Virus record (IMG/VR): IMGVR_UViG_3300047557_002467
Location: 1 to 64,000 of that record
Source: a virus
Direction: 5' to 3' (one strand)
Length of the DNA: 64,000 bases
In this document: positions 1,150 through 38,000 of the stretch, in pieces
Layout: the number at the start of each line of letters is the position of its first letter
How positions within the stretch are numbered: the stretch's first letter is position 1
Translations under genes and position numbers: made by a program
Notes under the pieces: model-generated
The model's database searches: none
Told to the model about the DNA's origin: nothing
What the model saw: the letters and a program-made list of their open reading frames with translations, nothing else

Positions 1150-1181
1150 TAAAGATAAGAACTTTATTTTGGGCCTCCAAC
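1150..1181 (-). promoter_or_regulatory. Bacteroidota-type promoter GTTG-N20-TATCTTTA
   Basis: Same spacing as six other intergenic copies; resembles the Bacteroidota -33 TTG / -7 TAnnTTTG consensus. Confidence 0.7.
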
Positions 1182-1742
1182 TTTATTTTTACAATTTTTA
1201 AAATGGTGTTTTTTCATCCCAGGTACACCTCCTGTTTTACCACAGTATGGACATGTCGTAGTTCCATAACAGTGTCCTTTATGTTTGTTTGGTTTACCTT
1301 TGCGTGAAGCACTTAGTTTAGCTTTATGTTCATCTGAAAAGGGACCTCGTTTTACTCCTATTCTTGCTAATGCCATCCTCTTCTGTCTTTCCTCTGGTAT
1401 TCCTCTTTGTTTAGCAGATTCAGACATCTTACGCTTAGATTCCTCTGAATGTTTCTTTCCCGTGAAACTACTAGGTTTACCTTTTTTGGCTAGAGACATT
1501 TGTTTTTTTATTTCATCTAACTCTTCTATACTTCTATTAAGTCTCTGACCTATAATAAAAGCTGCGTAGTAATCTTTTTGTTGTAAATGTATATTGTAGT
1601 GTTCTTCTACTGTTACACATTTTAAGTTACTTAGATCGTTGTTTTTTCGATTACCGTCAATATGATGAATTTCATACGGTCTATCTTGTTCGTCGTTAGG
1701 GATGGTTCCATTAACTTGTTCCCATATTTGTCTGTAATGCAT
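1164..1742 (-). mobile_element. Free-standing HNH homing endonuclease with NUMOD3 DNA-binding repeats
   Basis: EIHHIDGNRKNNDLSNL...EEH HNH motif; GKKHSEESKRKMS and FSDEHKAKLS NUMOD3 motifs; C-terminal CPYC...HHxxxC. Confidence 0.9.
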
Positions 1743-1854
1743 CTTAAATAAGAAGGCCCTAATAAAGTGACGCTGCGACCTGTCAACTCTAAAAGGGCCA
1801 ATAAATTATTTATTGTAGATACTAGTCGCAGTAGTATACTATCTATAATAAATA
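1743..1854 (-). ncRNA. Putative cis-regulatory leader: two hairpins with complementary (kissing) loops upstream of the HNH gene
   Basis: Stems at 1807-1824/1832-1854 and 1755-1760/1794-1799, the latter with an inner TGAC/GTCA pair. Loops CTGCGAC and GTCGCAG are perfect 7-nt complements. Confidence 0.6.
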
Positions 1855-1870
1855 TTAGTAAAATACATTT

Positions 1871-2749
1871 TTAGACATTTAAAGTCTTATCCCACCCACT
1901 GATGTGTAGTCTTGTTAAACCTCTTAGCTTGTACTTTTTAGCCATTTCTAAGCTGAATTGTGTTCTTTCGTGGAAATTTTCTTGACTATCCATTCCAGGC
2001 ATTATTACTACGTTCTTCAACGGTATATTGAAAGGTTCAATAAAGTCTCTAAATATCTCCTTAATATCATCCTCTGTACTAACGACAAACTTAAACTGGT
2101 AACAGCTGTGAGTCATAATACGTTTAATCGCCTCTGGATTAATACGTTGTTTCTCAGTCATACCTGAATTAGATAATTTAGGTGAGCAGTTGATTTGATC
2201 TAGCAAACCAAATAGTTCATTATCAATATACACAGTACCATTGGTTTCAATTTCGTTAAATATATTAAAATTAGCATTATAACATGGTAACCAACTTCCT
2301 GCATCTGATAACTCATATCCAGGTAATGTTTCTGTTAGATATTTAAGAAAATTAACAATTGCTTCTTGATGTCCTTTAATTGTCGGTTCACCACCAGTCC
2401 AAATGATATGGATTGTACCGTTCTTAATATCATCGTAGATACCTTGTTCTTTCCACCTATCAATTAAATACTGAAACTCTTTATCTTCACCTCTCCATAA
2501 CCACTGACTTGTTGAATCACAAGTCCAAGTTGCTTTACCTTCTTTAACTAAATCACCTTCAAATATTTCTCCGTCCTCCAACGATTGTTCTTTAGCTAAA
2601 TTATTTGCAAACTGACGAGACATACCGCAAGTCAAATTACAAATACCTAAACGAACAAAGTAGGAAGGCACCCCAGATGAAATGCCCTCACCTTGGACAG
2701 AGTAGAAGTCTGAACTAATTAATAACTTATTTGGATCTATTTTACTCAT
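1871..2749 (-). CDS. queE: 7-carboxy-7-deazaguanine synthase (radical SAM), variant CX3CX35C cluster motif
   Basis: FYSVQGEG...FVRLGICNLTC...WTCDS, TGGEP, IETNGT, CSPKL, FKFVV and RLHI motifs; adjacent to queD. Confidence 0.88.
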   Translation of the reverse strand: MSKIDPNKLLISSDFYSVQGEGISSGVPSYFVRLGICNLTCGMSRQFANNLAKEQSLEDGEIFEGDLVKEGKATWTCDSTSQWLWRGEDKEFQYLIDRWKEQGIYDDIKNGTIHIIWTGGEPTIKGHQEAIVNFLKYLTETLPGYELSDAGSWLPCYNANFNIFNEIETNGTVYIDNELFGLLDQINCSPKLSNSGMTEKQRINPEAIKRIMTHSCYQFKFVVSTEDDIKEIFRDFIEPFNIPLKNVVIMPGMDSQENFHERTQFSLEMAKKYKLRGLTRLHISGWDKTLNV

Positions 2750-2871
2750 TTAAAAAATGTTTTAATGTAATTAAGTATAGGACTGATGTTTTGCCAATCT
2801 AATATTACTGATAATATACTGAAATGTTTTTCACCACATAATCCTAATATGTGTTCTATTTCATGTATCAT
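2746..2871 (-). CDS. Small 41-aa protein (MIHEIEHILGLCGEKHFSILSVILDWQNISPILNYIKTFFK)
   Basis: Hand-translated. Fills the queD-queE gap exactly, and its TGA overlaps the queE ATG (ATGA coupling). Confidence 0.6.
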   Translation of the reverse strand: MIHEIEHILGLCGEKHFSILSVILDWQNISPILNYIKTFFK

Positions 2872-10952: not shown

Positions 10953-10967
10953 AATAAATAGTAGTAA

Positions 10968-35095: not shown

Positions 35096-38000
35096 TTACT
35101 CTAATTTTGATTTAACGTACTCTTCTAGTTTTTTAATTTGTTCACTTTGTTCTTTAATTGCTTGAATAAGAAGCGGAACAATCTTTTCATACTTAACTGC
35201 CTTATATCCGTTTGCTCTTGTAGTTACTACTTCAGGCAATACTTTTTCTATTTCTTGAGCAATAACACCTATATCGTGACCTTCAAATCCGTGTATCTCT
35301 TCATTAGGAATCCAATCAAACTCGTATCCCGTAATCTCTGCTATCTTAAACAATGCATCTTGAATAGGTGTTACATTGGTTTTCAATCTTTCATCCGATG
35401 TACTAAACGCTACTACGTCATTTGAAGCATCAATACGACCTACTGTAGCTGATGGTGCTATACCTCCTACTGCAAGTGATCCTGATATACCTGCACTACC
35501 GGTTATCATATTTAAGGTACCGTTCCAATGAAACCTTACATTACCACCACCATCTGCAAGTACTACGTTGTTATTAGTACCTGCTGCAAGAGTTACATTT
35601 GCACCTACGACTGTATTGCAAGCACCTGTTGTTATAGCACATCCAGCAAGTGACCCAATTGTTGTATTTAGAGTACCCGTAGTAACAGAATATAGAGATC
35701 TATCACCTACAGCAGTGTTTTGAGTACCTGTAGTATTTGCTCTCAATGAATTGACACCTACTGCTGTATTACATATTCCAGTAGTGTTTGCTATAAGAGT
35801 GTTTGCACCAAGTGCTGTATTTGCAGCACCAGTAGTGTTTGCACACAAACTAGCATGTCCGAAGGCTAGGTTATCAAATCCGGTCGTATTAGCAACAAGT
35901 GCATTTGTTCCAACTGCAACGTTTCTAACACCGGTAGTGTTAGAATTTAAAGCTCTATAACCAACAGCTACGTTTGCGTTTGCAGAAGTTGACCCAAAGT
36001 TTTGATTACCTAAAGCACAAAAGCCTACTGCTACGTTGGCATTTCCTGTTGTACTAAACCTCATTGCACTATGGCCTACTACAGTGTTTCGATTACCAAT
36101 GGTATTTAATCCTAGAGTAATGCTACCTAAAGCTGTGTTGTATGCACCGTAGGTGTTACACAACATGGATGAAAAGCCTATTGCTTCGTTGAAGCTTCCT
36201 GTTATATTTTTATAAAGTGCTCCACTACCTACAGCTGTGTTACCTCTTCCTGTAGTATTTACTCTCAAAGCACTCTCTCCTACAGCTGTGCTAGAGCAAC
36301 CTGTCGTGTTAGCATCTAAAGCGTAGGATCCAACAGCTGTATTTCTACAACCAATAGTATTCAACCTTAATGCCCTAAATCCAATTCCAACGTTATCTGG
36401 ACCTGTTGTATTAGTTCTTAGTGCTTGAGCACCTACTGCTGTAGTATTCGATGCTGTGTTATATCTTAAAGAATAATAACCAACCGCAACATTATTTACA
36501 CCAGTACTATTTGTGTACAATGCACTGCGACCTACAGCTGTATTTCTACAACCAGTAGTGTTAAGTCTCATTGTTTGAATACCTAACGCTACGTTATTAG
36601 ACCCTAGAGTGTTTGAGAAAAGACTTAAGTATCCTACAGCAGTATTATTTGGTGCAACATTATTACGTAAACTGTTTACTCCTACTGCAGTATTATTATT
36701 GCTTGATACGTTCGCACATAATGCGTAACTACCTACTGCTGTATTAGTGAGACCTGAAGAGTTGAATCTTAAAGCATTTAAACCCAATGCAGTGTTGTTA
36801 CTGCCTGATGCATTAGAACAAAGTGCAGCATAGCCTAATGCAGTGTTCTGTGATCCTGATTGATTTAGTCTTAATGCGTTTGTACCAACTGCTGTGTTGC
36901 AAGAAGTTGTTAAGTTACATAAGAGAGCATATCTTCCAACAGCTGTATTATTATTACCAACTGTATTATTCCTTAATGAGTAAGATCCAACTGCTGTATT
37001 GCAATTACCTGTTGTATTAAAAAGTAAAGTTGCTCTACCAACTGCAACATTACTAATACCATATGTGTTATTACGTAATCCCCACAAACCTACTGCTACG
37101 TTATCGTTACCTGTTGTATTACGATTTAATGCGCACAAACCGATTCCTACATTATTATTACCTATTGTATTGCATAATAAAGCTCTATAACCAACTGCTA
37201 CGTTATTGAAACCAGTTGTATTAGCGTAAAGTGTTTGAGTTCCTATTGAAGTATTAAAACTACCTATTGTATTAAATCGTAAGGCAGATAGACCTAAAGC
37301 TGTATTAAATGAACCTTCTGTGTTATCTCTTAACGCATTAACACCTAATGCTACGTTACTACTACCCGACGTGTTAGCACAAAGTGCTGCATATCCTAAT
37401 GCTGTGTTAAATGAACCAGATTGAGCTAATCTTAGTGCGTTATAACCTACAGCTGTATTACAAGATGTTGTTATGTTACATAGAAGAGCACTTCCTCCTA
37501 AACCAACGTTGAAAGTACCTGTTGTATTATTAAATAATACACCAGAACCTATAGCTGTATTACTTGATACTCTGTTATTAAATAAAGCTTGCTGACCTAC
37601 TGCAGTGTTATTTTGACCTGATGTATTACACCTCATCGCTTGCTCACCTACAGCCACATTCAAATTACCTGTGGTATTTCCGTACAATGCTCCGTAACCT
37701 ACAGCAATATTACTTCTACCCGAAATATTAGAAAATAAAGCACTAGCACCTAAAGCAACATTTCTACATCCAGTTGTATTAACCCTTAATGCAATATTAC
37801 CTACTGCAACATTTCTATCACCAACCGTATTAGCTCTTAGAGCTGTGTTACCAATTGCAACGTTTGCAACTCCTGTTGTATTATATCTTAAAGCATCTGC
37901 ACCAAATGCGTTGTTTGCACTTCCTGATATATTACTGCAAAGTGCATTATATCCAAATGCATTATTAAGAGATCCTGATTGAGATAGTCTTAATGCATTT

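Follow-up and report, generated by a model that had tools for sequence, protein, structure and literature searches.

The window analysed in this study is a stretch of 64,000 nt from the IMG/VR record of a 95-kb virus, whose genes all lie on the minus strand and whose G+C content is 36%. The leaders of the phage genes are A/U-rich and lack Shine-Dalgarno (SD) sequences, the phage helicase is 58% identical to that of Flavobacterium phage vB_FspM_immuto, and DNA near-identical to the virus record was found in freshwater and lake metagenomes. A spacer of 128 nt (1743-1870) lies between a queE-like gene and a nuclease gene with HNH_3 and NUMOD3 domains. The features of the locus, from queE towards the nuclease, are:

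1871-2749, minus strand: queE-like gene, upstream of the cassette, which starts 14 nt past the queE stop codon
1843-1856, minus strand: promoter-like box AA-TATTTAT-TATAG (TATTTAT at 1854-1848), 5' boundary of the module, based on sense-strand enrichment in non-coding DNA and on the start of the identity between leaders L338 and L320
1807-1854, minus strand: hairpin 1 of the predicted folds, with the box region paired to its complement in the lower stem and loop 1 on the upper stem (5' arm 1854-1832, 3' arm 1824-1807)
1825-1831, minus strand: loop 1, CUGCGAC, 5' half of the kissing helix (complementarity and covariation)
1800-1806, minus strand: linker AUUUAUU, 7 nt, joining the hairpins
1755-1799, minus strand: hairpin 2, a three-tier, terminator-like stem with a GGCCC/GGGCC base (fold and covariation)
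1773-1779, minus strand: core of loop 2, GUCGCAG, inside the 10-nt loop 1772-1781, 3' half of the kissing helix (complementarity and covariation)
1743-1754, minus strand: U-rich tail UUCUUAUUUAAG, 12 nt from hairpin 2 to the ATG, a degenerate version of the U4-7 plus AUUUU tail of most other copies
1740-1742, minus strand: nuclease ATG
1164-1742, minus strand: free-standing homing endonuclease gene, 192 aa, HNH_3 and NUMOD3, I-TevIII-like (Pfam matches and relatives)

A protein search identified eleven HNH relatives of the window nuclease with 69-91% identity, and in protein-guided scans of metagenome, genome and viral contigs no close relative of the nuclease was found except on the contig of locus L048. 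In about 75 related phages other genes directly follow queE and the hairpins are absent. A group I intron was rejected as the identity of the element, since queE has a normal end in every relative. The last ~20 nt of queE and the next start (window 1871-1890) were also seen in loci L015, L019, L027, L035 and L042, at about 150-220 nt after queE; this end motif (..ACATTAAACGTATAA..ATG) recurs at the 3' ends of adjacent small accessory genes in related phages, and may be a recombination junction for gene-cassette shuffling.

Fold of the leader and its promoter-like box

The 151-nt region folded with a predicted energy of -40.5 kcal/mol, compared with -24.0 +/- 3.2 kcal/mol for its shuffles (z = -5.1; 0/200), and hairpin 2 by itself reached -21.2 kcal/mol (z = -3.8). 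A sequence-only reading of this DNA had described two sense-strand hairpins with loops that are exact 7-nt complements, a TATTTAT motif in the 5' arm of hairpin 1 and an ATG 12 nt after the second stem. Each of these elements was confirmed: both stems are correct on the minus (sense) strand and fold far below shuffles, CUGCGAC (1831-1825) complements GUCGCAG (1779-1773), the box (1854-1848) falls inside the arm 1854-1832, and the tail 1754-1743 separates hairpin 2 from the ATG at 1742-1740. Loop-loop complements of at least 6 nt between adjacent hairpins occur in about 0.4% of 110-nt windows in this genome, and none of these is GC-rich.

The 7-mer CTGCGAC or its complement has four more copies in the window, at 36525, 45032, 45315 and 60244, in giant fibre genes. 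The count of 6 stands against 2.0 expected and was reached in 1 of 100 shuffles; the extra copies are probably due to chance in repetitive genes. Two other identities for the element were discarded: a long palindrome remnant, because the flanks of the two loops are not complementary, and a purine-riboswitch-like junction, because the hairpins are far too long and there is no Rfam match.

The motif TATTTAT occurs in 31 sense and 10 antisense copies in the genome. Non-coding DNA makes up 4.8% of the genome but holds 20 of the sense copies, most of them 15-25 nt ahead of structural-gene starts. Given this bias towards the sense strand and non-coding DNA, the box behaves like a phage-specific promoter, probably of the late class, which bears out, at the level of motif enrichment, the earlier description of TATTTAT as a promoter motif. 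The motif was also seen 1-7 nt before the ATG at positions 10954 and 22102 (both in the window), 70361, 74873, 90663 and 93084 of the genome, and this proximity suggests that leaderless or near-leaderless late mRNAs are made in this phage. Simpler promoter-in-hairpin leaders were observed in three related phages (G002 contig C1 near 133184; G005 contig C1 near 25340; G003 contig C1, minus-strand offset 83857). These are single hairpins, with TATTTAT in the 5' arm or loop and the ATG in the 3' arm or loop.

A family of related leaders and covariation of the loop pair

The three patterns used to scan IMG/VR specified no more than the box, segments of the lower stem in hairpin 1, or the base of hairpin 2, and had N throughout both loops; two covariance models were applied after the pattern scans. 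At least 16 further loci of like architecture were found, which brings the family to at least 17 loci, at least 15 distinct leaders and at least 12 loop codes. The common order is TATTTAT box, hairpin 1, terminator-like hairpin 2 with U tract, 11-16 nt, and ATG. Two types were distinguished. The long type (at least 10 leaders: the window, L289, L273, L338 (= L320), L299, L283, L402, L391, L398 (= L393) and L428) has a 7-nt loop and a long hairpin 1, with the loop-1 sequences CUGCGAC, CUGCAAC, CUACGAC, GUGCGAU, GCGGAAU, ACGGAAC, CUCUAAC, CUACUAC and CUGCAU. The short type (at least five leaders: L048, L337, L294, L307 and L346) has a 6-nt kiss and a hairpin 1 of 5 bp, with the loop-1 sequences CUGGCA, CUGCAA and CGGCAA. 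Every match with two hairpins had a perfect loop match, the other pattern matches being unrelated sequence without the fold, and loop 2 was the exact reverse complement of loop 1 in 15/15 distinct leaders among the matches listed. The box was present in 17/17 copies among the matches listed, a presence that the search patterns partly forced.

The first homologue, L048, retains the queE-spacer-HNH layout, with a nuclease 81% identical to that of the window, and its contig was the only one matched by an exact leader-specific pattern. Its box is conserved and its stems are kept though largely rewritten, while the loops CUGGCA and UGCCAG are still complementary by way of two swapped pairs; background estimates put the chance of a loop match of this type at about 0.4-0.6% for a region of that size.

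The leader occurs in freshwater Flavobacterium-type phages with a T4-like replisome. Two copies with different codes are present on one contig (G006), and the covariance models found no additional copies on the host contigs beyond these two. No leader copy was found with these models in four complete related phages of 170 kb, from which HNH_3 genes are absent too. The sequence-only reading had called the leader unannotated and had named an Rfam search as a check. A search of the 64 kb against Rfam 15 (including HEARO/IscB omega RNA, the purine riboswitch and Flavo-1) gave no match at gathering score, and the matches within 1650-1950 were at chance level, with E above 2. A tRNA and tmRNA search returned nothing, and blastn of both leader types against 50,697 cultured-phage records returned no match. 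No description of the leader was found in open papers; a report in a subscription journal may exist.

When all copies were aligned together with MAFFT, the register was lost and RNAalifold recovered no more than the base of hairpin 2, so alignments by subtype and by covariance model were used. The covariance model that fitted the long-type alignment (10 leaders) did not include the kissing helix, and the alignment was therefore not biased towards it. In this alignment six of the seven kissing pairs showed two-sided changes and no pair a one-sided change, with 100% of the cells paired. For the whole structure, 96.4% of the cells were paired and 21 pairs covaried, against 10.5 +/- 1.9 in shuffles (0/500) and at most six in slid controls. 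Three of the six kissing pairs covaried in the short-type alignment (five leaders; 100% paired), as did five of seven in a four-sequence MAFFT alignment. Support from the stems differed by region: two of three pairs covaried in the upper stem of hairpin 1, whereas its lower stem, which holds the box and was partly fixed by the search patterns, is invariant and so gives no covariation support. In hairpin 2, four of six pairs of the base (variants GGCUC/GAGCC, GGCCC/GGGCC, GGUCC/GGACC and GAUCC/GGAUC) and nine of ten pairs of the upper tiers covaried across copies.

Covariation thus shows, at the sequence level, that the two apical loops pair in an all-Watson-Crick kissing helix of 6-7 bp that is maintained by evolution. 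Lack of loop-loop covariation in homologous leaders had been named beforehand as the outcome that would overturn the proposal, and the opposite was found, with at least 12 codes all Watson-Crick and two-sided changes in six of seven pairs. When related leaders are compared, differences are 2-5 times more frequent at the 12-14 kissing positions than at the remaining ~90, and some loop codes recur in diverged scaffolds. The excess divergence of the loops over the scaffold suggests selection for copy-specific pairing. Among near-identical environmental variants of the window locus, the leader was unchanged whereas the first 343 nt of the ORF carried 10 changes, a weak difference (P ~0.06).

The sequence-only reading had also found hairpin 2 to be terminator-like, and the other copies strengthen this, as a GC-rich stem base is followed directly by U4-7 in 14/15 leaders among the matches listed. 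In the window itself the U tract is interrupted (UUCUUAUUU) and weak. A simple consensus terminator scan did not flag hairpin 2, owing to its internal loops. Canonical hairpin and U-tract terminators are present after other genes of this genome, and by analogy with them the hairpin 2 and U-tract signal is probably recognised in this phage. Long-type leaders have the AUG at a conserved 11-12 nt past hairpin 2. In short-type leaders the distance is 13-16 nt, and after the U tract comes a near-consensus second box (TATTTAT or TATTTAC), 4-6 nt ahead of the start codon. On the sense strand, G-U pairs are present in the stems and absent from the kissing helix; the sense fold is stronger in 8/12 copies, including all five of the short type, with summed predicted energies of -353 versus -305 kcal/mol. 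Taken with the U tract, the constant orientation and the constant distance to the ATG, these folds make a sense-strand RNA the simplest reading of the leader.

Portability of the leader and comparison with known systems

Leaders L338 and L320 have the same sequence throughout, starting 2 nt ahead of the box and running through the ATG. Outside the leader they are unrelated, with different upstream genes and with an HNH ORF in one case and a LEM-3-like GIY-YIG ORF in the other. That the same leader stands between unrelated flanks marks it as a discrete module of homing-endonuclease cassettes. In L289 and L273 the leader and the flank upstream of it are shared and the ORFs differ; L337 and L346 have a near-identical leader and ORF without a common flank, and their kisses differ by one U-A to G-C swap. 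Downstream ORFs comprise HNH_3 with NUMOD3, other HNH, GIY-YIG (with or without NUMOD3), LEM-3-like GIY-YIG and I-HmuI-like NUMOD nucleases, and one 9-codon remnant. A leader without a nuclease ORF or remnant was not found among the matches listed. The suggestion that the structure travels with the gene is accordingly upheld, with at least three endonuclease families behind the leader and sharp module boundaries. The remnant lies in L402 (6259-6300), where only nine codons of an MNYQ-type HNH ORF follow the leader, which has outlived its nuclease.

Leader hairpins of the T-even homing endonucleases (I-TevI, I-TevII, I-TevIII, segB and Aeh1 mobE) contain an embedded late or middle promoter and sequester the SD sequence or the AUG (PMC2988022). 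The window leader is like these in being a structured leader directly before a phage homing endonuclease (here an I-TevIII-like nuclease), in having a promoter-like box in the 5' arm of a hairpin, and in its presumed role of keeping nuclease expression low or late. It is unlike them in that, as a Bacteroidota-type leader, it has no SD sequence and neither hairpin covers the AUG or the ribosome-binding site, and in that two hairpins are joined by a covarying loop-loop helix, the second being followed by a U tract. Since the start codon is not sequestered, this is not the T4 mechanism itself, and the T4 analogy put forward in the sequence-only reading fails in that defining respect; by comparison, the Bacteroidota-type leader looks like a different solution to the same nuclease-control problem. 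The classical I-TevI-type form of control was observed in seven loci from SD-using T4-like phages (L087, L088, L093, L095, L096, L099 and L127), where a TATAAATA box and then a GGAG-enclosing hairpin lie in the 150 nt upstream of HNH_3 genes that are distant relatives of the window nuclease.

Intrinsic terminators have been described inside the 5' coding region of T4 mobE and segF, as simple hairpins with 4-nt loops that are thought to reduce nuclease transcripts (PMC2988022). The window leader shares with them a GC-rich stem and U tract at a free-standing endonuclease gene, but its terminator-like hairpin has a partner hairpin and lies before the ATG. The seg-type nuclease gene seg43(25) of Aeromonas phage 25 has a hairpin of high stability just upstream of its translation start, which is not sequestered (PMC2988022). 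That structure is a single hairpin, with neither a kiss nor reported covariation, unlike the window leader.

Outside this group of genes, loops of 6-7 nt pair fully in ColE1 RNA I/RNA II and R1 CopA/CopT, and single base-pair loop changes create new specificities. These are trans-acting antisense transcripts of one DNA segment, so that one mutation alters both loops, whereas in the window leader about 45 nt separate the two loops on a single strand, and two separate mutations are needed. In pT181, pIP501 and the phage P4 CI RNA (seqA/seqB/seqC), loop-loop contact with a nascent leader decides terminator action. The P4 RNA comes from the leader itself; in the window leader no convincing alternative antiterminator fold was found, inspection by eye and suboptimal folds giving only AU-rich alternatives of 4-7 nt.

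Two further loop pairs were noted during the comparison. In L152 (1860-2010), the HNH gene of an unrelated phage (42% identical) lies behind two strong hairpins whose apices complement each other (GGGUGG/CCACCC), a U tract, and an SD sequence and ATG; this leader may represent a second, independent kissing-leader family. In L049 (1980-2060), the loop CGUAGA of a small hairpin complements the loop of a terminator-like hairpin, before a small non-nuclease gene that is a homologue of window 2746-2871.

Proposed role of the leader and competing explanations

Window 1740-1856 (minus strand) is one copy of a portable leader module of about 115 nt that belongs to homing-endonuclease cassettes, and we consider it probable that the module acts as a cis brake. 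On the model proposed here, the leader is most likely a cis-acting attenuator or translation brake locked by the loop-loop kiss, and it probably holds nuclease production down. Hairpin 2 would stop most transcripts entering from the box or from upstream genes, and on read-through transcripts it would crowd the ribosome landing site; the kiss with hairpin 1 would lock the leader closed, so that nuclease synthesis would be low or confined to a short period. A brake is favoured in view of the GC-rich base and U tract of hairpin 2, its conserved distance to the AUG and the ordinary terminators elsewhere in the genome, and it fits the known need for low or late expression of phage homing endonucleases and the hairpins and terminators of T4 (PMC2988022). 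Points against it are the interrupted U tract of the window copy, the negative result of the simple terminator scan, the failure to find a convincing antiterminator fold that would relieve repression, and the invariant lower stem of hairpin 1; further, the apical kiss lies about 20 bp from the stem base and need not affect termination, and the second box of the short type fits a separate nuclease transcript.

That second box is also among the observations behind a competing reading, to which we assign a modest chance, that the segment from box to U tract (~90 nt) is a small RNA gene of its own. The product, an RNA whose 5' and terminator hairpins kiss, would act in trans (its targets could include a co-infecting phage and nascent leaders with the matching code), and the nuclease would be translated from a near-leaderless mRNA started at the proximal box. 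A box followed after ~90 nt by a hairpin and U tract is the classical layout of a small RNA gene, the box stands 1-7 nt ahead of the ATG in several genes of this phage, and loop codes that are hypervariable relative to the scaffold, and that differ between the two copies on one contig, are what is expected of specificity determinants. A good proximal box is missing in the long type, however, the window included; the conserved 11-12 nt between hairpin 2 and the AUG suggests coupling in cis, the leader is always found with a nuclease ORF or remnant among the matches listed, and an intramolecular kiss would outcompete trans pairing. A more doubtful extension is that the loop pair is an address code, by which a leader RNA recognises only its own kind and terminated leaders could act in trans on nascent leaders of the same code. 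If so, it would resemble the incompatibility determinants of plasmids and could provide copy-specific feedback, or competition between co-infecting phages with or without the cassette.

The remaining explanations are all unlikely in our view. In a T4-type translational switch, which we regard as improbable, the strand 1868-1858 on transcripts reading through from queE would pair with the AUG region 1746-1736, in a three-way junction stabilised by the kiss, whereas transcripts started at the box would lack that strand and be translated. Such control is established for the five T-even genes named above (PMC2988022) and has its classical form, with the TATAAATA box and SD sequestration, in the distant HNH_3 relatives; an 11-bp AUG helix is part of the minimum-energy fold of the window, and the AUG of L048 is predicted to pair with the box region. 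The AUG helix is nevertheless AU-rich and weak (-7.7 kcal/mol), its partners differ in L048, where it is not conserved, and its upstream strand lies outside the module boundary, where the flanks of L338 and L320 are unrelated; pairing of the start region ranks 21/96 among the phage genes and is not an outlier. It is likewise hardly to be expected that hairpin 1 (~20 bp) is an RNase III-type site that would free the cassette from the upstream operon, with the kissed fold protecting the new 5' end. The long-type hairpin 1 is indeed a near-perfect helix of 14 bp plus 4-6 bp, and no terminator lies between the upstream genes and the leader, but the short type keeps the kiss and hairpin 2 with a hairpin 1 of only 5 bp, and the U tract would be left without explanation. 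An element acting at the DNA level, as a cruciform or single-stranded DNA hairpins by which recombination or homing would recognise the edge of the cassette, seems very unlikely: it would suit the purely Watson-Crick kissing helix and the sharp module boundary with ORFs swapped directly behind it, yet the G-U pairs of the stems would become A-C mismatches in the opposite strand, folding is better overall for the sense strand, and the U tract, fixed orientation and ATG distance point to RNA. Lenient scans give a 6-nt loop-loop complement about once per 17 kb of strand, which speaks for a chance match; at least 12 different codes, all perfectly matched at homologous positions, refute a chance origin of the loop match.

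Homing endonucleases are the commonest selfish genes of large phages. To our knowledge, T4-like coliphages, in which the SD sequence is hidden in a hairpin, are the only phages in which the regulation of these nucleases has been resolved, and as far as we know SD pairing is not used by Bacteroidota and their phages. The leader described here offers a testable model for nuclease control in such a non-SD system. Its 7-bp intramolecular kiss, made with the loop of a terminator-like hairpin, is a compact RNA tertiary contact under clear selection, and the leader passes as a module from one nuclease family to another, almost every copy having its own code. It thereby offers a natural set of orthogonal kissing pairs, a marker for homing cassettes in metagenomes, and a new entry for RNA family catalogues.
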